DNA of 42,768 bases from a virus (IMGVR_UViG_2531839663_000008:1-42768), one strand, 5' to 3'. Shown: positions 2,557-19,168, numbered from the stretch's first letter. Translations and numbers: made by a program. The notes: a model not told the origin generated them from the sequence alone.

Positions 2557-3617
2557 GCTGCGACCTCAAAGCTCTTTGCCGTAATAGCTTGGATTAGTCT
2601 CACCGAAGCAGCTTTTTGTGAAGCAACGCTGGCAATAACCGTCGCTCTATCTTTTTCAGTGCTGGCGCAGACACCGGACCAGGATGAAATGAGGAAGAAA
2701 TTCTCCAACTCACTCATAGTGGAATTATTTACTAACTCCTCAATCATCTGCACAATGATGTGTGCAGGGCGATGCCGTAGTAGTTCCTGCATTGCGTAGC
2801 CAAACGCATTGATCATCACCGCGTGGAACTGGATGTAATCCCGCTTATATTCAGCAGGCGTACAACCATGCCTAATTCCCTCGATGGCTGTTAGCTTGAG
2901 CCATGCCTCCCAAATGTCATAGATGTCACTAGTAGCAAGCTCATCCCCATTGACAGAGAATTTTGCAGTTGCATCACTCAGGGGTTTGAAGCTAATCCAG
3001 AGATCGCTTTTCGCCGGAACCACGTTGTGTTCAAAGTCTGTTATTTCTGAGAACACGGCATGGGATGACAAAAACGAAACCATATCTTGAGCAATTTTAT
3101 CCCTACCGTTATAGGCCATATTGATGGCCGCTGATGGCTTCGATACGTTGTTGTTGATGTCGGAAAAGAACTGCTGGCGCGTTTTGAGCGGCAGTTGGTG
3201 TGTCAGCATCATTGGGATGTGAATAGGCTCTCCGTAAGTGCGGCAGAACTCCGCAATGCCTGCGGCGCGATGCTGACCGTCAAACAGTTTAATCTCCGCA
3301 TCCATTGGGAATCGCGCAACACCCACATTCGTATTGCCAAACTCTTCGAACTCAATGAGTGAGTCGCAGTTTCCAACCAGCGGCGGGATGATGAACGGCT
3401 CTTTTTTCTCGTAAGCTGTTCGCAGATACTCATAAAACTTCTTCGCACGTGCTGGATTGAGTTCTCGCTGAGAACGCTCAAGCGTATTGCCGTGGTTATC
3501 TGATGCCAGAACGCGAGTTAGCGCGCGCGCTGGGACTGTCATCATCAACACAACCGTATTTCCCTGTAAGCCTCTTGATGCCGGGAATTCAAAGAAATAG
3601 TCACCAATTTTGCTCAT
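2553..3617 (-). CDS. DGQHR-motif protein (DndB-like, ParB/Srx superfamily)
   Basis: Literal FDGQHRAAG motif in the N-terminal third; start placed at second ATG, which has a GAGGA RBS about 9 nt upstream; stop overlaps the dam start by 4 nt. Confidence 0.6.
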   Translation of the reverse strand: MSKIGDYFFEFPASRGLQGNTVVLMMTVPARALTRVLASDNHGNTLERSQRELNPARAKKFYEYLRTAYEKKEPFIIPPLVGNCDSLIEFEEFGNTNVGVARFPMDAEIKLFDGQHRAAGIAEFCRTYGEPIHIPMMLTHQLPLKTRQQFFSDINNNVSKPSAAINMAYNGRDKIAQDMVSFLSSHAVFSEITDFEHNVVPAKSDLWISFKPLSDATAKFSVNGDELATSDIYDIWEAWLKLTAIEGIRHGCTPAEYKRDYIQFHAVMINAFGYAMQELLRHRPAHIIVQMIEELVNNSTMSELENFFLISSWSGVCASTEKDRATVIASVASQKAASVRLIQAITAKSFEVAA

Positions 3618-6762: not shown

Positions 6763-6832
6763 GGTTTCTCCTGAAATTTGGATGTGCAGATCCCGCCCGC
6801 GTAATGCCAGGCCGAACGGTTGAATAGGGTGG

Positions 6833-7042
6833 TTAGTGCTGGATAGGGTTGCCGTGACCGTCAAGAAGGACGTCAATCACGCAGTCACTGAGTCGGATTA
6901 TTTCTGCGTCAGTGTGCAGGTATACCCATTTGCGCTCCTGAATGACTGCTGAGACGCGATATGTGCGGCCTTCATGCAATGCCATCATGCCGGGCGTGAC
7001 GCACTGGCGAATGAGCGGGGTGGTGCCGTAGTGGTTGATCAT
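6833..7042 (-). CDS. Hypothetical small protein
   Basis: 69-aa ORF; 4-nt overlap with the upstream gene. Confidence 0.4.
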   Translation of the reverse strand: MINHYGTTPLIRQCVTPGMMALHEGRTYRVSAVIQERKWVYLHTDAEIIRLSDCVIDVLLDGHGNPIQH

Positions 7043-7197
7043 GCCTTCACCTCAACCTGTTCCAGGAGGCCAGCGATATTCATCTGTTGGCGGTTCATCG
7101 TCAGCTTTTCACGCGGGTTAGATACCGACGTCAGCTGCCACTCGTTATCGTTGAGCTTTTTGGCGGTGTACTGCTTGCCGTTGTGGGTGACTGTCAT
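7039..7197 (-). CDS. Hypothetical small protein
   Basis: Start placed at internal ATG (MTVTHNGK...) with AAGGTGG RBS upstream; ORF-track start 7239 is probably an over-extension. Confidence 0.4.
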   Translation of the reverse strand: MTVTHNGKQYTAKKLNDNEWQLTSVSNPREKLTMNRQQMNIAGLLEQVEVKA

Positions 7198-7198
7198 C

Positions 7199-7408
7199 TC
7201 ACACCACCTTGAATAAGAACCAGCCCATACCGCACACAATCAGGCCCACAATGGTTATTGCGGAAGACATGCGTACATGGTCAATGGCTAGTTTTGAAAG
7301 TGGCTGGCGATGTTCTTTTTTCGTCAGCGAGTTGATTGCTATGCCGAGCAGAAACGTCCCGACAAACCATAATGCGTATATCTTTAAGCCCAACTCCAAA
7401 TCACTCAT
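7199..7408 (-). CDS. Small membrane protein (two predicted TM helices)
   Basis: 69 aa with two hydrophobic stretches (IYALWFVGTFLLGIAI and AITIVGLIVCGMGWFLF). Confidence 0.45.
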   Translation of the reverse strand: MSDLELGLKIYALWFVGTFLLGIAINSLTKKEHRQPLSKLAIDHVRMSSAITIVGLIVCGMGWFLFKVV

Positions 7409-7542
7409 AAATCCTCTTGGCCTTATCGCGGCGAACGGAACGGTTAATACAAGACTTCAACGCATTTATTCAGTGTTTCAATGGGCGGTGGATGGCCGCC
7501 GGTTTTCATAACTAAGCCGCCTCGGTGAAGCGACTGAGGTAT

Positions 7543-7564
7543 GAAAAAGCCCTCCGGAGAGGGC
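7543..7564 (-). terminator. Intrinsic terminator for leftward transcription
   Basis: GCCCTC-CGGA-GAGGGC hairpin; on the minus-strand RNA it is followed by a U-run (plus-strand AAAAA at 7544-7548). Confidence 0.5.
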
Positions 7565-7575
7565 TATGTGTTTCG

Positions 7576-7716
7576 CTTAATCATTGGGTAAGCCAGAGCA
7601 ATTACACCTGCCACTAATACCCCGTCAGCCAGCATCGACATCAACTTCCCGGTGAAATCGACAGCAATCACCAGGAAGAGGAGGACGCCGATAATCAACC
7701 AGCGCAATTTATCCAT
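7576..7716 (-). CDS. Possible micro-membrane peptide (about 46 aa), absent from ORF track
   Basis: ATG at 7716 abuts the TerB-like stop; translation begins MDKLRWLIIGVLLFLVIAVDF (hydrophobic helix); exact frame and stop not verified. Confidence 0.3.
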
Positions 7717-8141
7717 CAGATATAAGCGTCGAGTGATAACTGAAGAGCCTGAGCGATTTTCTTCAGCTGTTTTTCTTCGTCTTCGCCGATGCCGTCGTTA
7801 TCGGCTACGTCAAGGCACAGGCAGAGCACATCAACTGCGTCTGGAGTACCTGCCACATCTGCAAGTTCGCGCATTGCCTGGGCATTAGCAGAGCGAGGGG
7901 ACGCTTCGTACTGTGCGCGAATGTTGCTGCTCATGCTGGCGATCTCACCTGCGAAAGCAGAGAACGCTGGTTTTGCCTGAATGGTTTTCTCCAGCGTTGC
8001 AATTTCTGACGCATCACAAGTACCGTCTGCATAAGCGATCGAGTAACAGCCCCACACCGTTGCTTCAACTGCGTCGCGGTTTTCCATCTTCTTCACTTCG
8101 ACGATCGCCTTGCGTGCTTTTTTCTTAAACAGTCCGAACAT
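7716..8141 (-). CDS. TerB-like domain protein
   Basis: 141 aa with two YADG/DNDG ... DE.E.K-type repeats resembling TerB; first gene downstream of the leftward operator/promoter. Confidence 0.5.
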   Translation of the reverse strand: MFGLFKKKARKAIVEVKKMENRDAVEATVWGCYSIAYADGTCDASEIATLEKTIQAKPAFSAFAGEIASMSSNIRAQYEASPRSANAQAMRELADVAGTPDAVDVLCLCLDVADNDGIGEDEEKQLKKIAQALQLSLDAYI

Positions 8142-8365
8142 TTGACTACCCTCTTGGTTTAAGCCATCAACTTGATGGCGACATTTGACTTACCGTCAGC
8201 CCCTCGTAAAGAGCTGCTGGTAAATCGTGTTGCCATAATTGCCGCTCCTCCTGAGCCCGCCTATGGTCCGACGCATGGTTTACTGTCGCGCCGTTCGACT
8301 GACCGAATCTCCACTTCGCTGCTGGCTAACTTCGCTCAGCTGTCGATGTTTCGTTTCGATGGGTA

Positions 8366-8443
8366 AATTTAGCGTGATGCTAAATTATGCGCAATAGCAA
8401 AATGCTAAATTGTTGAATGGTTTTATTTAGCGTATTGATTAAT
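8366..8443. promoter_or_regulatory. Left operator array (OL-like) and leftward early promoter region
   Basis: Three sites: ATTTAGCGTGATGCTAAAT (8366-8384, perfect dyad), ATAGCAAAATGCTAAAT (8394-8410), ATTTAGCGTATTGATTAAT (8425-8443). Confidence 0.6.
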
Positions 8444-8525
8444 AAGCGATTAAAAATTTACAGCGAAGGAATTCGGGACGTAAAAAAGCCCGCGCGATGG
8501 CGGGCTTGAGGGGTTTTGCGTGAGG

Positions 8526-9203
8526 TTATGGGATGTTTAGTATTTTGGCATCAACCACAACGCCGATGATTTTGCAGTTTCCATTAATTTCTAGCATTGG
8601 ATATGCGGGGTTAAGGGGCTTTAGGAAGCGTCTGCCGGCATCGATTACAAGCTTCTTAAAGGTCGCTTCGTTATCGCCTTCTAGCTTCGCGACAACCAGC
8701 TTTCCGTTGCGCGGCTCGACTTCAGGATCAACAAGTATCGCTGCTCCCTCGGGTATGCTCAGTCCAGCCGGGGAGGTCATAGAATCCCCTTTAACGTCCA
8801 GCCAGAATGAATCTTCTGAGCAGTCAACAGTCGTGTCATACCAGCGATCTATCGCTCTTCGGTGATAAGGTTCTACAGCTTCCATCCATTGCCCCGCGCT
8901 TACCCAGCTGATTACAGGATAACTTCCTTTTGTCTCGTTCAGTCCTCGAAATGCAACGTTCGAAGGTTCTTCACTGGCGTGTAAAACATCCATCCAGCCA
9001 AAAGGCAGATCAAGCGCAGTTTCAATTTTGCGAGCCATCTTATCGCCGATATTGCGATGAGGGTTTGGTCCCAGTAGCTGGCTAAGCGCAGCCGGACTTG
9101 TCTCGATGAGCTCGGCAAACTGCGCTTTGGTCATTCCAGACTCGTGCTGACGCTTCTCGTACAGCGCTTCCAGGTTGGCTTTTCTGATTTCTTTATTTTC
9201 CAT
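8526..9203 (-). CDS. cI: CI-like prophage repressor (HTH domain plus S24 LexA-like peptidase domain)
   Basis: Start placed at MENKEIRK...; C-terminal half has S24-type layout with a GDSM motif; flanked by operator arrays and divergent from cro-like gene. Confidence 0.8.
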   Translation of the reverse strand: MENKEIRKANLEALYEKRQHESGMTKAQFAELIETSPAALSQLLGPNPHRNIGDKMARKIETALDLPFGWMDVLHASEEPSNVAFRGLNETKGSYPVISWVSAGQWMEAVEPYHRRAIDRWYDTTVDCSEDSFWLDVKGDSMTSPAGLSIPEGAAILVDPEVEPRNGKLVVAKLEGDNEATFKKLVIDAGRRFLKPLNPAYPMLEINGNCKIIGVVVDAKILNIP

Positions 9204-9220
9204 ACCTGCATTGTTACCGC

Positions 9221-9288
9221 TTTTAGCAAAATGATAAATGTGCAAATTGCTAAATGATGCTTGCGTAGTATTTAGCATAACGCTAAAC
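9221..9288. promoter_or_regulatory. Right operator array (OR-like) with divergent PR/PRM-type promoters
   Basis: TTTAGCAAAATGATAAA (9222-9238) and perfect dyad ATTTAGCATAACGCTAAA (9270-9287), same consensus as the left array; lies between cI and cro. Confidence 0.6.
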
Positions 9289-9319
9289 TCCAAATCAAAC
9301 GACTCACCCGGAGACACCA

Positions 9320-9553
9320 ATGAGCACTGAACTACACCGCTGGCGCAAGGCCGCCACTACCGACGAATGGGCGCAGCTCGCAAAGTTGGCTAACACGACG
9401 CCAGGTTACCTGGACCAGATCGCCTACGGAAATCGCCGGGCATCTCCAGAAATGGCATCTGCTATCGAGAAAGGCACGAAGAATTTTCACCGCCAGGCTC
9501 CGGTCCTAAAAGAAAGCCTGGTATTCGCATCGCCGCGTGATACTGCGGCCTAA
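9320..9553 (+). CDS. cro: Cro-like HTH regulator (Cro/YdaS-type)
   Basis: 77 aa; HTH segment TTPGYLDQIAYGNRRAS; GGAGA RBS upstream; divergent from cI across the operators. Confidence 0.6.
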   Translation: MSTELHRWRKAATTDEWAQLAKLANTTPGYLDQIAYGNRRASPEMASAIEKGTKNFHRQAPVLKESLVFASPRDTAA

Positions 9554-9570
9554 CCACGAAAGGGAAAGCA

Positions 9571-10116
9571 ATGCATTCACTTGCGTATCAACAAGGTAAC
9601 AAATTTTCGCCAACGGCGATGATTTACCAGAATCGCCGGGAGCCTGATTCCACGGCGTTAAACATCGATGGGATCCGCGCAGCTGTTCGCGCCTGGGCAG
9701 CTGATTGCCGAAGCCGTGAATTTGTCGCCGCGCTGATCGTGGAAGAGTGGCGGGCGTCCGGCGGAACCGGTCTGGATATCCCGACTGACTCGCACCGCCA
9801 GATGCAGAAAGTGTTTCGATGGATTGATGGCGATACCGAATACGCCGCCAACAACATTCGCCAGCTGGCCCCGGCAATCATGTCGGTCCTGCCGCTGGAG
9901 TACCGAAACCGTCTGGCGCCGCAGAACGACACGATGTCGCTGATCGCCTCTGCGATGAAAGAGTGTGCCGAGGCTAAACAGGCCGTGCTGCTGGACGCTC
10001 CAGAGCATCAGAAGCTCAAAGAGGTAAGCGAGGGTATAGCGTCGCTGTTCCGCCTCATGCCGGAGCAGGTAGGACCGCTGATGACGATGGTTACATCGAT
10101 GCTGGGGGTTATATGA
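9571..10116 (+). CDS. Phage regulatory protein at CII-like position (family uncertain, possibly YdaT-like)
   Basis: 181-aa ORF directly after cro-like gene and before the replication genes. Confidence 0.4.
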   Translation: MHSLAYQQGNKFSPTAMIYQNRREPDSTALNIDGIRAAVRAWAADCRSREFVAALIVEEWRASGGTGLDIPTDSHRQMQKVFRWIDGDTEYAANNIRQLAPAIMSVLPLEYRNRLAPQNDTMSLIASAMKECAEAKQAVLLDAPEHQKLKEVSEGIASLFRLMPEQVGPLMTMVTSMLGVI

Positions 10117-10201
10117 GAGGCACAAGAAAAGAAAAAGCCCTTGAAGCGGTAACTTCAAAGGCCCTTATCACACTGTGTTACGCCAAGTAACGGGAGTAAG
10201 T

Positions 10202-11110
10202 ATGTCAAACACCGCTGAAATAATCAATTTCCCAAATAAAACCGAACAACCGGGAGGTCGTATGGTCGACCTGTCGAACGGGTATACCAAGGTCGCTAAC
10301 GAGATCCAACAGCTTAAGCCTCGCCTGAGACTGTCAGGCCGGGAATGGCAATGTTTTGAGGCGGTGATCTGGCTTACCTACGGCTGGAACAAGAAACAGG
10401 ACCGCGTGACAAATACGGTTATTGCCGAGCTTACGGGCCTGAGCGATACGCATGTATCGGACGCGCTTAAGTCTCTCGCAGAACGCAAAATCATCTTTTC
10501 ACAGAAGCAGGGCATGATGAAAATCGTCGGTGTAAACACTGACCTTTCAGCATGGATTTTAGACAAACCGGAAACGGGAAGAAAATTCCCGAAAACGGGA
10601 AAATCCTTCCCGAAATCAGGAATAACCTTCCCGAAAACGGTAGACACCCAATACAAGAACAAGAACAGTATTAAAAGATCTTCGTCCGAGAATTCTGACG
10701 AATCCTCTGACGCACGTCTGAAGAAATTTTTATCAACTCATCCTGAAGCTGCGGTCTACACACCATCCGGTGCGAAGTGGGGCTCTGCTGAAGACCTCGA
10801 GACAGCTAAGTGGATTTCCTCCAGGGTGAAGCTGATTAACCCAACCTGCAAAGCCCCGGACATGACCTCCTGGTCTAACACTGTTCGCCTGATGCGCCAG
10901 ATAGACAACCGGTCGCACCAGGACATCTGCGCGCTGTATGACTGGGCTAGCAAACACCACTTCTGGCAGACCAACATCCTGAGTCCCGAAAGCCTGCGTA
11001 AGCAGTGGGACAAGCTGACAATGCAGCGTAACGCCGGAGGTGAGCAGCGCGCTGTCAAGCCAGATCTGGACTTCAACAACACTGACTGGGCCTATGGGGT
11101 GATCCGATGA
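10202..11110 (+). CDS. Replication initiation protein, lambda O-like
   Basis: Start at ATG preceded by GGGAG RBS; iteron array lies inside the gene and encodes FPKTG/FPKSG peptide repeats; immediately followed by P-like gene. Confidence 0.75.
   Translation: MSNTAEIINFPNKTEQPGGRMVDLSNGYTKVANEIQQLKPRLRLSGREWQCFEAVIWLTYGWNKKQDRVTNTVIAELTGLSDTHVSDALKSLAERKIIFSQKQGMMKIVGVNTDLSAWILDKPETGRKFPKTGKSFPKSGITFPKTVDTQYKNKNSIKRSSSENSDESSDARLKKFLSTHPEAAVYTPSGAKWGSAEDLETAKWISSRVKLINPTCKAPDMTSWSNTVRLMRQIDNRSHQDICALYDWASKHHFWQTNILSPESLRKQWDKLTMQRNAGGEQRAVKPDLDFNNTDWAYGVIR
10566..10700. repeat. Putative replication origin: four direct iterons plus AT-rich segment inside the O-like gene
   Basis: Repeats with core TCCCGAAAACGG(G), each with internal dyad symmetry (CCCGAAAACGGG), at about 10568-10645, followed by AT-rich DNA. 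Confidence 0.65.
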
Positions 11111-11796
11111 AATCTCTTGCAGAGCAGATGCGTAACCACGACCGCGAGCAGATGAGCCGCATGGCCCATAACCTGCCAGAGCAGTACCAGGAGTGCGCGC
11201 CGGTCGAGCAGGTGGCGCAGGTATTCAACAAGCTGTTCAACGAGCTGCGCGCCGCGTTCCCGGCCAGCATGGCGAACTTCCGCACCCAGGAAGACCTGAA
11301 CGAATTCCGCCGTCAGTGGCTGCTGGCGTTTCAGGAGAACGGGATCCACACCATGGCTCAGGTCGATGCCGGCATGCGCATTGCCCGCCGCCAGGAGCGC
11401 CCATTCCTGCCGTCGCCGGGCCAGTTCGTCGCCTGGTGCAAGCAGAGCGGCGGCGCGCTGGGCGTCAACGTTGACCAGGTGATCGCCGAATACTGGGACT
11501 GGCGTAACCGCTCGTTCGAATTCATCTCCAGCGAGCAATTTCCATGGTCGCAGCCGGTCATGTACCACATTTGCGTAGAATTGCGCCACCGCAGCACCGA
11601 GCGCCAGTTAACGCATGGTGAACTGGCACGCGAGGCAGGCGATCTGCTGGACATGTGGGAAAGGCGCGTCACCGAGGGTAAGCCAGTGCCGCCGGTACGC
11701 CGGGCTATTGCCGCACCAGCTGCCGAGCAAGGGCCGACGCCGATCCAGCTGCTGCTGGCCAAGTACAACCGCAACAAGTCGAACGGGATGGTGTGA
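11107..11796 (+). CDS. Replication protein P-like (helicase loader)
   Basis: 229 aa; start overlaps O-like stop by 4 nt; lambda-P-like position; family assignment by recollection only. Confidence 0.65.
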   Translation: MKSLAEQMRNHDREQMSRMAHNLPEQYQECAPVEQVAQVFNKLFNELRAAFPASMANFRTQEDLNEFRRQWLLAFQENGIHTMAQVDAGMRIARRQERPFLPSPGQFVAWCKQSGGALGVNVDQVIAEYWDWRNRSFEFISSEQFPWSQPVMYHICVELRHRSTERQLTHGELAREAGDLLDMWERRVTEGKPVPPVRRAIAAPAAEQGPTPIQLLLAKYNRNKSNGMV

Positions 11797-11797
11797 C

Positions 11798-12142
11798 ATG
11801 AACATAACAATCCGTGAGCAGGTGCTGGCAGCCCTGCGCAACAACCCAGGGTTGAACAACGCCAAACTGGCAGGGCTTATCGGCATGGACACCAAAAAGA
11901 TATCCGGAACGGTGAGCACGCTGCTGGCAGACGGCCTGATCCGCTGCGAAGGAAAATACGGCCAGCGCCTTTACAGCCTGACCAGCTACGGAATGCGCTT
12001 CGCCCCTGACACGATACTTGGCATGAAGCAGGGTAAGTCGAAGTTAATTCAGCGGACGGACACAAATGTGATCTGCCAGGAGTGCCGCAACAGCGCGGCG
12101 ATGAGAAGGGTATTGATGGTTTGGGGGAGGGTAGGGGTATGA
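11798..12142 (+). CDS. Hypothetical protein with winged-helix-like N-terminus
   Basis: Start at ATG one nt after P-like stop (MNITIREQVLAALRNNPGL...); ORF-track start 11615 is an over-extension into the P-like gene. Confidence 0.5.
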   Translation: MNITIREQVLAALRNNPGLNNAKLAGLIGMDTKKISGTVSTLLADGLIRCEGKYGQRLYSLTSYGMRFAPDTILGMKQGKSKLIQRTDTNVICQECRNSAAMRRVLMVWGRVGV

Positions 12143-12600
12143 CAAACGTAAGTGCAGTAGAAAAAATGGCTGAATTAATGCAGCAGATGGAAGAGAACTC
12201 GCCCCGAGTTGCTGCTCTCCAGTATTGCCTGACACAGGTTGCGGAAAAAGTCGAAGAAGCAGAAAAGCGCAATGCGGAGCTTGAAGCCAGATGCGCTGCG
12301 CTGAGTGCGGAGAATTCGGGACTGAAGTCAGCGATTGACGCAACTATCGGATGGCAGCAATCAACCGATCCGGAGAATGTCGAAAGCGTTCGAATGCTGG
12401 TCGACGTTAAAACCCCGGTAACCGACGCTTTCCTGGCTGAAGTTCTGGCGCATGGGGTGGAGATGGCGGCTTGCGCTCTTGATGACGTAAACCAGTTTAA
12501 TTACGCAAACATGCTTGACGATTTAGCGCAGAAACTTCGCAAGGACTCCAACACCGCAGACCCGTTAGCCGCTGGCATCATCACTGAGGTGGGGGATTAG
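12139..12600 (+). CDS. Hypothetical coiled-coil protein
   Basis: Start at MTNVSAVEK... overlapping the upstream stop by 4 nt. Confidence 0.45.
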   Translation: MTNVSAVEKMAELMQQMEENSPRVAALQYCLTQVAEKVEEAEKRNAELEARCAALSAENSGLKSAIDATIGWQQSTDPENVESVRMLVDVKTPVTDAFLAEVLAHGVEMAACALDDVNQFNYANMLDDLAQKLRKDSNTADPLAAGIITEVGD

Positions 12601-12603
12601 GGT

Positions 12604-12831
12604 ATGGCTAAGTCACAAATGAAATTGGCTAATCGCGCATGGCGTACAGAAACAAAGGCTTTGGGCTGGCATGAAGGGCGTGGGATGAATCGCAAGCAAT
12701 GGAAAACTTTCTGCCGGGAAAATGCCGCCACAACCGTAGAGTCGCAAAAATACAGCGATTGTCCTGTATTTGGCGATCAGCAAGAAGCCAGAGAAATCGT
12801 TGCCGAAGAACTTACCGAATGGACACTATAG
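12604..12831 (+). CDS. Hypothetical small protein
   Basis: 75-aa ORF, co-directional and tightly packed. Confidence 0.4.
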   Translation: MAKSQMKLANRAWRTETKALGWHEGRGMNRKQWKTFCRENAATTVESQKYSDCPVFGDQQEAREIVAEELTEWTL

Positions 12832-12840
12832 GGCTAACCC

Positions 12841-13512
12841 ATGACCAAACTAACCAAAGAACGCTTGGAAGAAATCGCAGAGCTTGCAAGAAAGGCGACG
12901 TACAAGCCATGTGCAATGCACATGACGAATTTATTGGTAGTATGCGATAGCGAAGTTATCGAGGAAATGGCCCGCCAGTTGCTTGCAAGCATGGAGCAGG
13001 AGCCTGTGTCGTACACCTGTAGTGACGCGTTAGATGATGTTTACTGTGGTAGCGCAGCCATGATGGGGCCCGCTGGCGCTGTGGGAGAAGTACCACTCTA
13101 CGCAGCACCACAGTTACCGCAGCCAGCGGTGTTATCAGTGTCTGAGGGCGTGCTTAAAAGCCTCTTACCCGATGTTGAGAAGTCCGAGTTCTGGTTTGAG
13201 CATAATGGGAAAATCTTTTTTGAAGGTGTGAGGTTTAACAATGCGGTATTTGAAGCCTGCCGCGCCGCCATGCTTCAGGGTGCCGAACTTGTAAGTAATC
13301 GTGATGAGTTGCCGGATGGTTGGGTGGCTTGCAGTGAGCGGATGCCGGAGAAAGCTGATGAAGTTTTGTGTGCCAAAGAATTCGATGGTCCAGGTGATTG
13401 GCGCCAAAAGGTTGGTTATTACTTAGCGGGGAAATGGACGGTGTATAGCGCATCATGGACGCCGACCCACTGGATGCCACTGCCAGCAGCACCGCGGCAG
13501 GAGCTGAAGTGA
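12841..13512 (+). CDS. DUF551-like phage protein
   Basis: C-terminal GWVACSERMPEK ... GKWTVYSASWTPTHWMPLP resembles the DUF551 signature. Confidence 0.55.
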   Translation: MTKLTKERLEEIAELARKATYKPCAMHMTNLLVVCDSEVIEEMARQLLASMEQEPVSYTCSDALDDVYCGSAAMMGPAGAVGEVPLYAAPQLPQPAVLSVSEGVLKSLLPDVEKSEFWFEHNGKIFFEGVRFNNAVFEACRAAMLQGAELVSNRDELPDGWVACSERMPEKADEVLCAKEFDGPGDWRQKVGYYLAGKWTVYSASWTPTHWMPLPAAPRQELK

Positions 13513-13548
13513 CGAACAAGATGACGAGAGTTACCATAGATATAAATC

Positions 13549-13572
13549 AAGGCCCTTAGGGGCCTTTTATTC
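13549..13572 (+). terminator. Intrinsic terminator
   Basis: GGCCC-TTAG-GGGCC hairpin followed by TTTTATT. Confidence 0.6.
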
Positions 13573-13587
13573 TATGATAAACGGACT

Positions 13588-13932
13588 TTGTTTGAGAGTG
13601 ACGCCATGAAGCCCAAGAAGCTAAATGCTGAGCAGCAATACAAATTAGACCTTGAATTGGTCAAGAAGAAGCCTGCGAACCGGACCGAGGCAAAAGCCCA
13701 TTTGGCCTCACAGTTACGGATCAGCAAGTACAAGACGCAGACCTCTTCCAAAATCCGCGTAGGCAGTTTTAAGGGGCGGAAGAAGGTACATTTCAGTAAG
13801 GCGGAACGAGCAGCCAGGGCAGCACTAAATAAAGCAAATGCCATTAGATTTTCCGAAGGGGAGGTCGAGTCCGTCGATACGGATAGAATCTCAGAAAGTA
13901 ACAAACGCTGGCGCGGGAGAACTGCTGACTAA
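13588..13932 (+). CDS. Hypothetical basic (K/R-rich) protein
   Basis: 114-aa ORF after the terminator; start could instead be the ATG at 13606. Confidence 0.4.
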
Positions 13933-14186
13933 TGTCTGACTGGAATATTGCTGCAAAGCCGCAGGAAGAACGCGACAAGGTCAACGTTGACCTGGCAGCC
14001 TCCGGCGTAGCCTACAAAGAGCGCCTGAACATGCCGGTTATCGCTGAGGTGGTGATGCGTGAGCAGCCCGAGCATTTGCGTGATTACTTCCTTGAGCGTC
14101 TGAAGTTTTATCGCGAGAAGTCGATAGATTTACCAAGGGCATCCGATCCGCGGTACATGGAAATGGCTGATTCTAATAAAAAATAA
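13932..14186 (+). CDS. Hypothetical small protein
   Basis: 84 aa; start overlaps the upstream stop (translational coupling). Confidence 0.4.
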
Positions 14187-14237
14187 GCCCTAACGTGTTG
14201 ATGACCTTATCAGACCTAAACAGGAGGTTTTTCTAAA

Positions 14238-14777
14238 GTGATTAATATCATTGTTGATTCCAATGCTTGGAATTTTTTACATGTGAGTGGGATCTCCTTA
14301 AGCAACGAGCTTCTTAGCGATTATAACTTTCAGATAACATTAGAGGTGTCTCGTGAATTGCAGGAGTTAGTGGGCAAGGAAGGGAAGGAAGCTCTTTATG
14401 AATTCTTTGTAAGTGAGACTCAGTCGCTTGAAGAGCCCTTATGCTATTTTGGTTTTTACAATGAGTCAGTGCCTGCTGATGAACAGCGGTTTGGTGGATT
14501 TGGTGTTGGCGGGTTCGCATCTGTTCATCAAGATGATTATTTTCAGAAAACATTCCGCCAAATAAAATCATCAAAGCGTGGTATTTATTATGGCAATGAA
14601 GCTGACATGCTGATCGGGTCAAGAGGAATTGGGAACACTTTCATACTAACAGAAGATAATAATAAGTCAGGCCCGATGAAAGAGGCTGAGAACACTATCT
14701 TTGTTTCAAGAAAATTTCCTATGACTGTGGAGCAGTTTAAGGAATATCTTGATCTTGAAACCTCAAAAACTCTTTAG
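14238..14777 (+). CDS. PIN-like domain protein (putative nuclease), AT-rich accessory gene
   Basis: GTG start; N-terminal IIVDSNAWNFL and C-terminal EADMLIGSRGIGNTFILTEDNN match PIN-domain strand/acidic-residue patterns; gene is visibly AT-rich versus flanks. Confidence 0.45.
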   Translation: MINIIVDSNAWNFLHVSGISLSNELLSDYNFQITLEVSRELQELVGKEGKEALYEFFVSETQSLEEPLCYFGFYNESVPADEQRFGGFGVGGFASVHQDDYFQKTFRQIKSSKRGIYYGNEADMLIGSRGIGNTFILTEDNNKSGPMKEAENTIFVSRKFPMTVEQFKEYLDLETSKTL

Positions 14778-14964
14778 TTACTGCGCTTTGATTTTTCATA
14801 ATCACTCCGCCATAATCATGTCATCGGAGCCTGAACAACTCCGGTGACTTCTTCGCATTTAAGGGGACTTAAATGCGACCACAATCTGAACTCATCGCCT
14901 TGTCACAGATGCAGACATGCACCTGCGATTTTCTGCATTCTGCGGTTTCCGTCAAGGAGGCCGT

Positions 14965-15420
14965 ATGATTATCTCCAAAGACGGCATCAAGCTACACCGT
15001 GGAAATCTTGGTGCTATCACTCAGCATCTGAAGCCACTTCTCGAAAACGGTGAGTGCTTCCGGCTCCAACTCAAAGACTGGCGCGAGAAGAGAAGCCTTT
15101 CACAAAATAGTCTGAGCCACGTTTGGTACAAGGAAATAAGCGACTACCTGATCAAGTCTGGGCGCACTGACGCAACGCCTGCATGGGTAAAGCGAAACCT
15201 CAAAAAAACTTATCTGGGTTATGAAGAGGTTGAGTACACCGATTTCGTCACCGGAATTAAGACGATTGAATTAGAACTCCGCCACACGTCCGATCTGGAC
15301 ACTGGCGACATGCACCATTTCATGTGCCAGGTGGAAGGCTGGTGCGCTCAGTTTGGCCTGGTGCTCACAATCCCTCAAAGCAGCGAATTTCAGGTGCTGC
15401 GCGATAAGCAGGAGGCCTGA
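14965..15420 (+). CDS. ninB: NinB-like recombination protein
   Basis: Start at MIISKDGIK with AAGGAGG RBS; central SLSQNSLSHVWYKEISD resembles the NinB conserved region. Confidence 0.65.
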   Translation: MIISKDGIKLHRGNLGAITQHLKPLLENGECFRLQLKDWREKRSLSQNSLSHVWYKEISDYLIKSGRTDATPAWVKRNLKKTYLGYEEVEYTDFVTGIKTIELELRHTSDLDTGDMHHFMCQVEGWCAQFGLVLTIPQSSEFQVLRDKQEA

Positions 15421-15590
15421 TGTCAACTCCACTTTCCCGCGTCATCACAAACGAAATCTTTCGCGTTCCAGCGCGCCGCAAGCCTAAGCCCGCGGTTAAG
15501 CCGTCCGATATCCCGACCCTGAAAGACTACACCGCCCGCCTGGTGGATCAGAAATGGCTGCGTCTCGCAGCGAGGAGAAAATCAGCATGA
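15420..15590 (+). CDS. Small basic protein, possibly NinE-like (56 aa), absent from ORF track
   Basis: ATG overlaps ninB stop; ends ...[12 protein letters not shown]; stop overlaps the phosphatase start (ATGA); similarity to NinE is from memory only. Confidence 0.35.
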
Positions 15591-16255
15591 GCATGTATCA
15601 ACGAATTAATGGCGCTGACTGGCGCAATATCTTCGTCGTCGGCGATCTGCATGGGTGCTACACGCTGCTGATGAATGAGCTCGAAAAGGTTTCGTTCGAC
15701 CCTGCGCGTGATTTGCTGATCTCGGTTGGTGACCTTGTTGACCGCGGCGCGGAAAACGTCGAGTGCCTGGATCTGATTACTATGCCGTGGTTCAGGGCAG
15801 TGCGCGGTAACCATGAGCAGATGATGGTTGATGGGCTTTCAGAGCATGGAAACGTCAATCACTGGCTGGTAAACGGTGGCGGTTGGTTCTTCAATCTCGA
15901 CTATGACAAAGAGGTGCTGGCTAAGGCTCTGGTTCACAAGGCAGCTGAGTTACCACTCATCATCGAGCTGGTTACCTCCGATCGGAAAATCGTAATTTGC
16001 CACGCTGACTACCCGCATAACGAATATGCGTTCGACAAGCCGGTCCCGAAAGACATGGTCATCTGGAATCGTGAGCGGGTTAGCGACGCTCAGGGCGGCA
16101 TTGTCTCGCCGATAGCCGGTGCTGATCTGTTTATCTTCGGCCACACCCCTGCGCGCCAGCCCCTGAAGTATACCAACCAGATGTACATCGACACAGGAGC
16201 GGTGTTTTGCGGAAACCTCACGCTGGTTCAGGTGCAAGGTGGTGACCATGAGTAA
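15587..16255 (+). CDS. Serine/threonine protein phosphatase (lambda NinI-like metallophosphatase)
   Basis: GDLHG, GDLVDRG and GNHE metallophosphoesterase motifs in order. Confidence 0.85.
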
Positions 16256-16532: not shown

Positions 16533-16888
16533 AAATCTACAACATCACACCAATCGGCAAGCCTCGCATGACCCGCGCGGATAAGTGGAAGCAGCGTCCA
16601 CCTGTAATGCGTTACCGCGCTTTTTGCGATGAGGTCCGCCTGCGCAAGTTGACCATGCCTGAATCCGGATCACATGTGACATTCGTCCTACCAATGCCAC
16701 CAAGCTGGAGTAAGAAGAAACGAGCGGAGTTCGCCGGGAAGCCCCACCAGGCCAAGCCAGACTGCGACAACATGCTGAAAGCCCTGATGGATGCGCTTTA
16801 TGAGGATGATGCTCACATCTGGGATTGCCGCATCACAAAGGTCTGGGGAGAGAAGGGGCAGATCATTATCGGGGAGTGCGCACCGTGA
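16529..16888 (+). CDS. rusA: RusA-family Holliday junction resolvase
   Basis: 119 aa; acidic KPDCDNMLKALMDAL motif typical of RusA; 4-nt overlap with upstream gene. Confidence 0.75.
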   Translation: MKIYNITPIGKPRMTRADKWKQRPPVMRYRAFCDEVRLRKLTMPESGSHVTFVLPMPPSWSKKKRAEFAGKPHQAKPDCDNMLKALMDALYEDDAHIWDCRITKVWGEKGQIIIGECAP

Positions 16889-16997
16889 CCAGAGACGAGA
16901 TAACCCGATATCAGGCCGAAAGCGTTAAGCGCGCCAACCTGCCGCCAATAGCAAAGCACAGCCAGACCAAAACCAACCAGCCACAGAAGGAAGCCGC

Positions 16998-17687
16998 ATG
17001 AACAGTCAGCAACTGGAATACGTACGTCAGCAGCTCATTGTGGCGACCGCAGACCTCAGCGGGGCGACGAAAGGGCAGCTGGTAGCTTTCGCCGAGAACG
17101 CGCAATTCACCGCGACGGCGCGGAGTCGGGGCCGGAAAAAGGTATTCGACAAGGATAAGCAGCGCATGGTCAATCCTGACGGCCAGCCGATGAGCGGCAA
17201 CCAGTCCCGCGCTAAGGGCTCGTCTATCGCGCTGGTGGGCCCGGTAGAGTACGGGACCGCATCGTGGCGCCGCGCTGTTCTGTCGCTTGAAGACCATCAG
17301 AAAGCGTGGCTGCTATGGAACTATAGCGAGAACGTGCGCTGGTGCTATCAGGTGGAAATCACTCAATGGGCGTGGGCAGAGTTCCGGGAGCAGCTCGGCG
17401 CGAAGAAGGTGGCCGGCAAAACGATGGAGCGCCTGAAGAAGCTTGTCTGGCTCGCGGCTCAGGACGTGAAAGCAGAGCTGGCAGGGCGTGAGACGTACGA
17501 ATATCAGGCGCTGGCGTCGCTGGTTGGCGTAACGCCAAAAAACTGGTCAGAGACCTTTACTGACCGCTGGGTTGAGATGCGCAGCATCTTCCTGCGACTG
17601 GATAGCGGGGCTTTATTGCAGGTTACGCGATCACGTTCACAACAAAAGGCGACAAATTTAGACTCAAGTCTTGCAAAACTGGATTGA
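16998..17687 (+). CDS. Late-gene antiterminator, Q-like (by position; family unverified)
   Basis: 229-aa ORF directly upstream of a strong sigma70-like promoter plus terminators and the lysis cassette. Confidence 0.5.
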   Translation: MNSQQLEYVRQQLIVATADLSGATKGQLVAFAENAQFTATARSRGRKKVFDKDKQRMVNPDGQPMSGNQSRAKGSSIALVGPVEYGTASWRRAVLSLEDHQKAWLLWNYSENVRWCYQVEITQWAWAEFREQLGAKKVAGKTMERLKKLVWLAAQDVKAELAGRETYEYQALASLVGVTPKNWSETFTDRWVEMRSIFLRLDSGALLQVTRSRSQQKATNLDSSLAKLD

Positions 17688-17699: not shown

Positions 17700-17752
17700 T
17701 CATGTAAATCTGATATCGTCGCCATAGCTTCGTAGGTCGACAAAGAATTAAG

Positions 17753-17784
17753 AGCCTCGCCATCGTGCGGGGCTTTTTTATTTG
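17753..17784 (+). terminator. Intrinsic terminator (tR'-like, first)
   Basis: GCCUCGC / GCGGGGC stem with one G-U pair, followed by TTTTTTATTTG. Confidence 0.6.
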
Positions 17785-17857
17785 CGGTACGCAGCACACA
17801 GAACCCACTACCTGGGACCCTTCGGCCAGAGAGCCGACATTGCCTTACCCTCACATT

Positions 17858-17884
17858 GCCAGCCTGTCGCTGGCTTTTTTATTT
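17858..17884 (+). terminator. Intrinsic terminator (second, tandem)
   Basis: GCCAGC-CTGTC-GCTGGC hairpin followed by TTTTTTATTTG. Confidence 0.6.
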
Positions 17885-17956
17885 GCGATGTCCGGTCGTT
17901 GTTTCCTGGCATCCTTCCACTCTACACAAACAGCACCCCGTTCTTTCGGAGGTGAT

Positions 17957-18274
17957 ATGGCAAAGCGTATGAATGACGACCATAAAATTGTAGGCCTGTC
18001 CTGGTTAGTCCTGCTCGGCATTGCATGCTGGGGCGGTTTAGTTCGCTACCTGATCGACGTAAAGCAGAATAAAGCGACATGGAGCTGGATAAACGCGCTG
18101 GCACAGATCGCTGTCTCCGGCTTTACCGGTTTGATTGGCGGGTTGATAAGCGTGGAGAGTGGGTTGAGTTTTCACATGATCCTTGTCACGTCCGGCATTA
18201 GCGGGGCGATGGGTTCAGTGGCTCTGACCTATTTCTGGGAACGCTTGACGGGGATGAAGAATGCAAACCAGTGA
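17957..18274 (+). CDS. Holin
   Basis: 105 aa starting MAKRMNDDHK; hydrophobic TM segments; overlaps the lysozyme start; first gene of the lysis cassette. Confidence 0.65.
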   Translation: MAKRMNDDHKIVGLSWLVLLGIACWGGLVRYLIDVKQNKATWSWINALAQIAVSGFTGLIGGLISVESGLSFHMILVTSGISGAMGSVALTYFWERLTGMKNANQ

Positions 18275-18701
18275 TAAAGGCATTGCCCTGATCAAAGAGT
18301 TCGAAGGTTGCAAGCTCACTGCCTATCAGGACAGCGTCGGCGTTTGGACGATCGGTTATGGCTGGACTCAGCCCGTCGACGGGAAACCAATCCGTGCCGG
18401 GATGACAATTAAGCAGGAAACGGCAGAACGCCTGCTGAAGACAGGAATGGTCAGTTACGAAAGTGACGTGTCACGACTGGTTAAAGTTGGCCTGACTCAG
18501 GGGCAATTCGATGCCCTGGTGTCGTTCACGTATAACCTCGGTGCGCGGTCATTGTCGACATCGACTCTCCTGCGAAAACTCAACGCCGGAGATTACGCTG
18601 GTGCAGCCGATGAGTTCCTGCGCTGGAATAAAGCTGGTGGGAAGGTGCTGAATGGGCTGACACGTCGGCGGGAGGCAGAGCGAGCTCTGTTCCTGTCATG
18701 A
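18261..18701 (+). CDS. Phage lysozyme (endolysin, T4-lysozyme-like fold)
   Basis: 146 aa; [10 protein letters not shown] ... TIGYGWT ... [15 protein letters not shown] pattern of phage lysozymes. Confidence 0.85.
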
Positions 18702-19168
18702 TTAGCGCACTGGTTAAGCGTTACTGGCTGCAGTTGCTGGTGCTGGCGTTAATCGGCGCACTGGCTTTCTTCGTGAACCACTACCGCGACAACGCCATCA
18801 CTTACAGAGACCAGCGCGATAAGGCCACTGAGAAACTCCTCCTGGCGACCGCCACCATTAAAGACATGCAGACCCGCCAGCGTGATGTCGCTGCACTGGA
18901 TGCCAAATACACCGGAGAACTGGCTGATGCCAAAGCCACTATCGATCAGCTTGAGCGTGATGTTGCTGCTGGCAAACGTCGGTTGCAGCTCAACGCAACC
19001 TGTCCCGCGAACGGAACGGCCAGCGCCACCGGCCTGGATGATGCAACCGGCCCCCGACTTACTGACGCCGCTGAACGGGATTATTTCACCCTCAGAGAGC
19101 GAATTGAAACCATCACCAGCCAACTGACAGGCCTGCAAGCGTATGTGCGTGAGCAGTGCATTAGATGA
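18698..19168 (+). CDS. Rz: Rz-like inner-membrane spanin
   Basis: 156 aa; N-terminal TM helix then coiled-coil; directly after the endolysin gene with 4-nt overlap. Confidence 0.75.
18927..19127 (+). CDS. Rz1: Rz1-like outer-membrane lipoprotein spanin, embedded in the +1 frame of Rz
   Basis: Signal/lipobox [10 protein letters not shown] followed by Pro-rich [26 protein letters not shown]; start codon uncertain (18927 or 18960). Confidence 0.65.

Follow-up and report, generated by a model that had tools for sequence, protein, structure and literature searches.

In the GenBank annotation of bacteriophage P1, the genes tciABC are preceded by the Pban promoter and operator, which are under the control of C1, and tciB overlaps the stop codon of tciA by one base. 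Two further systems invite comparison: the operon terZABCDEF, which encodes TerB and is associated with tellurite resistance, phage inhibition and colicin resistance, and the rexA/rexB unit of lambda, which lies next to cI on the repressor strand and includes a small membrane protein. NinE is known from lambdoid phages (lambda nin60, phi80, HK225 and ninE of E. coli DLP12) as a basic protein of 56 amino acids (aa), and is listed as 'unknown' in the lambda interactome paper, with one low-confidence two-hybrid hit. Here, small genes related to these systems are described in DNA of 42,768 nucleotides (IMGVR_UViG_2531839663_000008:1-42768, referred to throughout as the window), which was recognised as a lambdoid E. 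coli prophage by its gene order and by profile searches. An earlier note on this sequence had drawn attention to two tightly coupled open reading frames (ORFs) below the 60-aa cutoff of the ORF track and to an Rz1 ORF with an over-extended start. These are very probably three ordinary, catalogued lambdoid small genes, tciB, ninE and Rz1, that were mishandled by the track.

The closest relatives of the tciB locus are found in P1. TciA of the window is 77% identical to P1 TciA and TciB is 46% identical to P1 TciB over 28 aa; the two TciB proteins have the core DFT...S.L.DG.LVA...P in common and are of similar length, and in both phages the genes overlap by one nucleotide and lie in a repressor-controlled operon. 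The host operon differs (lambdoid pL in the window, as predicted below, and ban in P1), tciC is missing from the window, where tciB ends at a terminator hairpin that overlaps its stop codon, with no further ORF behind it, and the window TciB is nearer to the TciB proteins of Klebsiella and Escherichia temperate phages (∼70% identity) than to that of P1. The likeness to the ter operon lies in TciA, which exceeds the cutoff of the TerB model and carries a duplicated motif of the type A-D-G-x5-E (AYADGTCDASE and VADNDGIGEDE), which is characteristic of TerB. TciA is paired with a 50-aa membrane partner, however, and not with TerZ, A, C, D, E or F; profile searches of the window tciAB neighbourhood gave no TerC, TerD or other ter genes. 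With lambda rexA/rexB, tciAB shares the location next to cI, on the repressor strand, and the make-up of two genes, one of which encodes a small membrane protein, but there is no sequence relationship, tciAB is parted from cI by a terminator and the predicted oL/pL region, and the pair also occurs in lytic phages.

The ORF track combined the 60-aa cutoff with a longest-ORF rule. As 108 ORFs of at least 30 aa were counted within 9.5 kb, the presence of an ORF of such a length is not significant by itself, and support for the small genes is drawn from family profiles, purifying selection and conserved coupling. Profiles were taken from Pfam, NCBIfam and PHROG, and defence models from PADLOC-DB 2.0; curated cutoffs were applied. 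By these measures the two coupled ORFs appear as genuine genes that were lost to the length cutoff, as the earlier note had supposed: both passed curated family cutoffs, dN/dS (the ratio of nonsynonymous to synonymous substitution rates) was 0.14-0.29, and the NCBI pipeline annotates both. Conservation in related prophages, which had been proposed as a check, proved strong, with NinE in 49 phage records and at least 426 TciB relatives in viral contigs. PADLOC-DB 2.0 gave no match at E<=0.1 for NinE, TciB, TciA, YbcN or two neighbouring small proteins.

The hydrophobic ORF adjoining the TerB-like gene had been described, with no strand stated, as roughly 46 aa long, at 7576-7716. The ORF is real and abuts that gene as stated; its extent is 7564-7716 on the minus strand (50 aa), position 7576 falls at an in-frame AAG codon, and the stop codon is the TAG at 7564-7566. 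The product was identified as TciB, a DUF3927 protein, by matches to Pfam PF13064 (53.4 bits; cutoff 25) and phrog_1470 'TciB-like' (E=2.8e-20), and it is annotated in RefSeq as 'DUF3927 family protein' (WP_000359668.1). Substitutions were concentrated at third codon positions, as they were for NinE, and dN/dS was 0.17-0.27. TciB has a grand average of hydropathy of 1.24 and, by hydropathy analysis, two hydrophobic segments as well as basic termini. These segments are framed by invariant residues, namely R5, L12, L13, D20-F21-T22, M26-S27, D31-G32-V33-L34 and P44. The natural reading would be a membrane hairpin with both termini in the cytoplasm (N-in/C-in).

The gene immediately 5' of tciB, tciA (7716-8141, minus strand), encodes a 141-aa TerB-family protein that matched Pfam TerB (PF05099) with 31.6 bits (cutoff 24.4; residues 27-138) and phrog_632 with E=8e-64; dN/dS was 0.04 in comparison with phage Fostie. 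TciA is acidic and predicted to be all-helical. A single-sequence AlphaFold (AF2) model was likewise all-helical (predicted local distance difference test score, pLDDT, 58), a Foldseek search of the PDB with it returned only designed helical repeats (E>0.7), and a sequence search of the PDB with TciA gave no match even at E<=1.

The pairing of the two genes is conserved. TciB relatives were identified by tblastn in 40 phage records, and a TerB-like gene adjoins tciB in every record that was inspected: a temperate E. coli phage, in which the cassette lies between Q and the holin gene, an N4-like lytic Salmonella phage, a P1-like phage, an Actinobacillus phage and an Erwinia jumbo phage. Pattern scans confirmed by tblastn yielded the TciB/DUF3927 relatives in viral contigs mentioned above and 13 loci in species-representative genomes. 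Ninety-three TciB-encoding loci were fetched, with 90 complete tciA-tciB pairs that formed 31 clusters at 95% nucleotide identity. A tciA ORF lies immediately 5' of tciB in 91 of the 93 loci; of the other two, one is on a truncated contig and one, in E. albertii, is a decayed remnant. TciA measures 139-143 aa in 88 of the 90 pairs and 123 aa in the remaining two, and TciB 49-53 aa. The E. albertii tciB remnant (VVAVDFTGRLMSVLADGV...; positions 2968-3135 of the fetched locus) lies 3' of a Q-like gene, without tciA, and is the sole exception to the pairing for which the full context is available.

Among distant phage TerB genes (identity <=36%), the partner is absent in Pseudomonas PMBT3 and Sinorhizobium phiM5 and different in Vibrio BUCT194 and Pseudomonas AF. 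At positions 1132-1353 of the locus fetched from Pseudomonas phage AF, an unannotated 73-aa ORF with one transmembrane segment was noted, the GTG of which overlaps the stop codon of the TerB-like gene (GTGA), an arrangement that hints at non-homologous small membrane partners for distant TerB genes.

In the window, the ATG of tciB and the TGA of tciA have one base in common (TGATG), and an overlap of 1, 4 or 8 nucleotides between the tciA stop and the tciB start was found in all 90 complete pairs. No recognisable Shine-Dalgarno sequence was detected for tciB in any of the 31 cluster representatives, 27 of which have one for tciA, and tciB starts with GTG or TTG in 16 of the 31. The universal overlap together with the lack of a tciB Shine-Dalgarno sequence argues for coupling by termination and reinitiation, and indicates that tciB translation would be obligatorily coupled to tciA: TciB would be made only by ribosomes that have just completed tciA. 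Neither the universal stop-start overlap nor the missing Shine-Dalgarno sequence of tciB is described in the papers that were found.

The 56-aa basic ORF at 15420-15590 (plus strand), with overlaps of TGATG and ATGA at its two ends, was present as described in the earlier note, and was identified as ninE. Its product (isoelectric point 11.6; 14 K/R residues) matched NCBIfam NF007245 'NinE family protein' with 105.4 bits (cutoff 88; residues 1-55 on a profile of 56 positions), phrog_288 with E=1.4e-31 and Pfam PF05322 with 28.9 bits (cutoff 25), and the NinE proteins of phi80 and HK225 share its entire sequence (100% identity). A RefSeq coding sequence (CDS), WP_000106777.1, occupies the same position in a prophage of 99.6% identity. 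At the upstream junction (AGGAGGCCTGATG) the TGA of the preceding gene (15418-15420) and the ATG of ninE (15420-15422) are shared as TGATG, and a Shine-Dalgarno sequence, AGGAGG, can be read directly at 15410-15415 (plus strand), within the 3' end of the ybcN-like gene; the TGA of ninE (15588-15590) overlaps the ATG of the phosphatase gene at 15587 (ATGA, 15587-15590). In phi80, HK639, 4A7, CobraSix and a Klebsiella prophage, ninE is 171 nucleotides long and lies directly 3' of a ybcN/ninB-type gene, the five fetched ninE phage records spanning E. coli, Klebsiella and Enterobacter hosts. Length, position and basic composition are those of the lambdoid NinE proteins and nothing material differs; only the 3' neighbour varies between phages (phosphatase, HNH/YbcO or NinG). 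In comparison with four homologues (64-91% protein identity), substitutions fell mainly on the third codon position (for example 8/4/20 and 12/12/35), with dN/dS of 0.14-0.29. A single-sequence AF2 model begins with a short helix, continues through a basic linker and ends in a C-terminal helix (residues 34-55) with pLDDT of ∼87-91; a PDB sequence search with NinE gave no match.

The gene upstream of ninE (14965-15420, plus strand) had been named ninB. It is NinB/Orf-like in that it matches phrog_72 'NinB/Orf recombination mediator', and strictly belongs to the YbcN family (NF007281, 251 bits), without a Pfam match at E<=0.1; its track start at 14917 is over-extended, and the likely start is 14965, as in RefSeq. 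Downstream of ninE lies the gene of a Ser/Thr protein phosphatase similar to lambda NinI (15587-16255, plus strand; Pfam Metallophos, 57 bits), the RefSeq and phi80 'ppp' starts of which are equivalent; the track start at 15554 is over-extended, and the start is at 15587. NinE would be translated from the rightward delayed-early (nin) transcript by using its own AGGAGG, between the YbcN/NinB-like mediator and the NinI-like phosphatase. It may act as a small accessory protein that aids the nin recombination genes, with the basic C-terminal helix possibly binding nucleic acid or protein; by analogy with the lambda nin region, it is probably dispensable.

The third gene, Rz1, was indeed present in the track with an over-extended start: the track ORF (18882-19127, 81 aa) begins with GTG, and both the alignment of phrog_3198 positions 1-63 to residues 1-60 of the 66-aa protein and a GGAG 9 nucleotides 5' of the ATG support a start at 18927. 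Rz1 (18927-19127, plus strand), an o-spanin lipoprotein, was assigned by Pfam PF06085 (60.6 bits; cutoff 27.9; residues 35-74 of the 81-aa track ORF) and is embedded, with a frame offset of one base, in the gene of the i-spanin Rz (18698-19168, plus strand; Pfam Phage_lysis, 153.9 bits). A signal peptide with a lipobox Cys at residue 20 was recognised. The out-of-frame location within Rz, the signal peptide ending in Cys and the proline-rich mature part are those of lambda Rz1, which is 60 aa long; the window protein differs in its length of 66 aa and in a lipobox that is atypical at position -3. Rz1 is left unannotated by PGAP, the NCBI annotation pipeline, in a genome of 99.8% identity. As ninE and tciB are annotated, Rz1 is the gene truly missed by standard annotation.

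The position of tciAB relative to the immunity control region was analysed next to these assignments. A hairpin with T-run resembling a terminator follows the cI-like gene at 8480-8507 (minus strand; hairpin 8507-8486 with an 8-bp stem, 6 GC pairs, then TTTTTT), and between it and tciA lie three oL-type operator palindromes, TTTAGC-N5-GCTAAA, at 8368-8384, 8393-8409 and 8426-8442. Palindromes of the oR type are found between cI and cro at 9222-9238 and 9271-9287, with a weaker copy at 9240-9255 that is a direct repeat only. With up to two mismatches allowed, the 17-bp palindrome matched eight times in the window (1.6 expected by chance), and five of the eight matches are at oL/oR. Promoters were located by these palindromes and by a 27-nucleotide mirror repeat: pR is readable as TTGCGT-17 nt-TAAACT at 9261-9289, and the pL region contains a 27-nucleotide inverted repeat with 85% complementarity to the pR region 9261-9287. 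The predicted pL (8366-8394, minus strand; hexamers read as TTGCGC-17 nt-TAAATT) is thus a mirror of pR that points towards tciA, and the leftward early (pL) operon would begin with tciAB. Since the cI terminator and oL/pL intervene between cI and tciA, tciAB would not be cotranscribed with cI; a rexAB-like unit transcribed together with cI, the initial expectation, was rejected on the same grounds. A search with Rfam at relaxed threshold over 7000-9700 yielded only sub-threshold, chance-level matches.

At its 3' end, tciB is followed by a second terminator-like hairpin with T-run (7543-7565, minus strand; hairpin 7565-7548 with a 7-bp stem, 5 GC pairs, then TTTTT), the stem of which overlaps the tciB stop codon. 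A terminator in this position is not general (18 of 90 loci; 9 of 31 clusters). In sister prophages cI, operators and pL are retained (99% identity as far as 8190 or 8317), and so is the block 7404/7438-7551; in the slot 7552-8316 these prophages carry other cargo in place of tciAB: the zinc-binding protein ECs_2282, GhoS with a 57-aa ORF, or an Nmad5-family protein with a 70-aa ORF. The slot directly 3' of the predicted pL is best described, by these alignments, as a cargo hotspot. The 57-aa ORF beside GhoS is possibly a GhoT-like toxin. Nucleotide homology with cassettes in unrelated contexts is confined to ∼8155-7576, that is, to the Shine-Dalgarno sequence and the two CDSs, which argues that the tciAB cassette has no promoter of its own. 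In the window its neighbours are cI, oL/pL, a 69-aa membrane ORF and kil; in other lineages the commonest neighbours are the Q antiterminator gene upstream and holin/endolysin genes downstream, followed by repressors and kil.

As a promoter-less two-gene cassette, tciAB would use whatever operon hosts it: the repressor-controlled pL in the window, the Q-dependent late transcript just 5' of the holin gene in many phages, and the C1-controlled ban operon in P1. The proteins would then be made upon induction or infection rather than in a quiescent lysogen, with TciB as a putative partner, or anchor at the inner membrane, of TciA, an acidic protein predicted to be cytoplasmic and to have the TerB fold. 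By analogy with the ter operon, the most likely role would be an alteration of the envelope or ion state of the infected cell, for example phage or colicin exclusion. Expression at the onset of lytic development (early here and in P1, late in many other phages) and the presence in strictly lytic phages together favour a role in infection over one in lysogenic conversion. It is thus a possible, though tentative, reading that TciA and TciB form a mobile, promoter-less module of lytic development, located at the heads of repressor- or Q-controlled operons of temperate, plasmid-type and strictly lytic phages, that shields the envelope or ion homeostasis of the infected cell; exclusion of a superinfecting phage or of colicins, or the blocking of a membrane-triggered abortive response, may be examples of such a function.

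A rexA/rexB-like cassette for lysogenic conversion or exclusion, transcribed from pRM along with the repressor gene and active in the lysogen, was considered as an alternative, given that the pair lies directly 3' of the cI-like repressor gene, on the same strand, where lambda has rexAB, that it combines a soluble with a small membrane protein, and that the ter operon, source of the TerB homologue, has been linked in the literature to phage inhibition and colicin resistance. We hold this to be unlikely: the strong terminator-like hairpin after cI (8507-8486 with its T-run), the three operator palindromes and the promoter mirroring pR all intervene before tciA, relatives that retain cI, operators and pL exchange the cargo downstream of ∼8190/8317, this cassette is also carried by strictly lytic phages (N4-like and jumbo) and found within late operons, and the PADLOC search was without a match. 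It is also rather improbable that TciB is a holin, an antiholin, a lysis-timing factor or another membrane-permeabilising peptide with TciA as its cytoplasmic regulator. TciB, with 50 aa, two hydrophobic segments and charged termini, would be of suitable shape, and in about half of the 31 lineages the cassette lies just 5' of the holin/endolysin genes and 3' of Q; that slot of lambdoid phages is, however, a general insertion site for morons. Moreover, in the window, P1 and N4-like phages the cassette belongs to early operons, well away from the lysis genes, every lysis cassette seen has its own holin, and TciB matched no holin family in Pfam and PHROG searches.

A third alternative, in which at least one of the two small ORFs is an untranslated frame, present by chance or in decay, and the family names are artefacts of annotation propagation, appears very improbable indeed. 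Short ORFs are common by chance, the literature searched assigns neither protein a function by experiment, a Shine-Dalgarno sequence is missing from tciB, and one decayed tciB without tciA is present in E. albertii. On the other hand, length and frame are kept in both genes under dN/dS values of 0.14-0.29, in homologues down to ∼40-65% identity, in phages whose hosts are of different genera, tciB retains its invariant motifs and its pairing with tciA (91 of 93 loci), and ninE has a strong AGGAGG.

Several points weigh against the assignment of these genes and the proposed module, and are collected here. The Pfam score of NinE barely exceeds its cutoff, though the NCBIfam and PHROG scores are strong, and the lipobox of Rz1 is non-canonical, with Asn at -3 (A-N-V-G-C). 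The literature searched gives no function or mechanism for NinE, TciA/TciB or DUF3927, and no function for phage TerB; in P1, a CRISPR interference screen scored tciA, tciB and tciC as non-essential. The TerB genes of PMBT3 and phiM5, which lack TciB, imply that proteins of the TerB type can act without this partner. A consensus promoter scan over 6800-9700 gave no site at threshold, pR included, so the putative pL is assigned through its symmetry with pR and the operators, and low-level expression of tciAB in the lysogen may arise from incomplete termination after cI or from a promoter that escaped recognition within the 218-nucleotide leader. Transcription and translation of the small genes in this prophage are deduced from sequence.

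Further features were recorded around tciAB. The leader of ∼218 nucleotides between pL and tciA contains a 25-aa ORF (MATRFTSSSLRGADGKSNVAIKLMA; 8159-8236, minus strand; stop 8156-8158) with a strong GGAGGAG; it had no match among the PHROG families, and the sequence shared with a relative covers only its 5' part. After the tciB terminator, a cluster of stem-loops occupies 7404-7565 (minus strand): the U-run of the terminator pairs into a long hairpin (7547-7503), followed by a third (7500-7484), with a fold z-score of -2.98. The block 7404/7438-7551 is kept in relatives whatever the cargo, and the stem-loops may serve in processing, in antitermination or as a bidirectional terminator; an N-like gene was not identified. 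The first gene past the terminator (7199-7408, minus strand) encodes a 69-aa protein with two hydrophobic segments (phrog_25975) and is replaced in sister prophages. A second 69-aa ORF, at 6833-7042 (minus strand), is named 'cell division protein FtsZ' in RefSeq and matches the Kil septation inhibitor (phrog_294, E=1.2e-29); the RefSeq name appears to be a labelling error for an inhibitor of FtsZ. On the other side, the oR operators at 9222-9287 suggest that the repressor probably starts at ATG 9203 (225 aa, almost leaderless), downstream of the RefSeq start at ∼9279 and the track start at 9320.

The count of two missed small ORFs given in the earlier note holds in that both are real, and the list may be incomplete. 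A candidate third coupled ORF of 38 aa (16885-17001, plus strand) overlaps rusA by GTGA and Q by ATGA and is annotated as 'hypothetical protein' in the RefSeq records of two relatives. It matched no Pfam or PHROG family, and comparison with a 91%-identical relative gave substitutions of 1/3/4 by codon position and four amino-acid changes, without a clear purifying signal; support for it as a gene is weak. A 52-aa gene at 7039-7197 (phrog_6396) lies within an over-extended 66-aa track ORF. The holin track ORF (17765-18274, plus strand; 169 aa, GTG) is also over-extended, the RefSeq start being at 17969 (101 aa; Pfam Phage_holin_3_3). Between Q and the holin gene, at 17703-17776 (plus strand), a match to Rfam isrJ, an Hfq-binding small RNA, was detected with 68.7 bits (gathering cutoff 37); it sits where the short pR' transcript of lambda would lie, a place at which relatives carry tRNA genes and the window none.

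The gene order of the prophage is integrase/recombination genes, kil, the cargo slot, cI-like, cro-like, CII-like, O/P-like replication genes, nin region, Q, holin-lysozyme-Rz/Rz1 and structural genes. The immunity region is 99.9% identical to prophages of three complete E. coli genomes and the nin region 99.6% identical to prophages of other E. coli genomes, so that the element is mosaic; the ybcN-ninE-phosphatase region was matched in 2275 E. coli genome records.

The identities of ninE and tciB are already known and named in public annotation. The combination of a 60-aa cutoff with a longest-ORF rule hides NinE and TciB and over-extends the starts of Rz1, ybcN, the phosphatase, the holin and cI, and comparison with family profiles should be the first check on small-ORF flags such as these. 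Mildly new, and descriptive only, are the reinitiation proposed for tciB, the promoter-less nature suggested for the pair, and a variable cargo slot after the predicted pL instead of a cI-linked rex analogue. This sharper description of tciAB eases the experimental testing of a long-unexplained accessory pair that was named in P1 by homology only.

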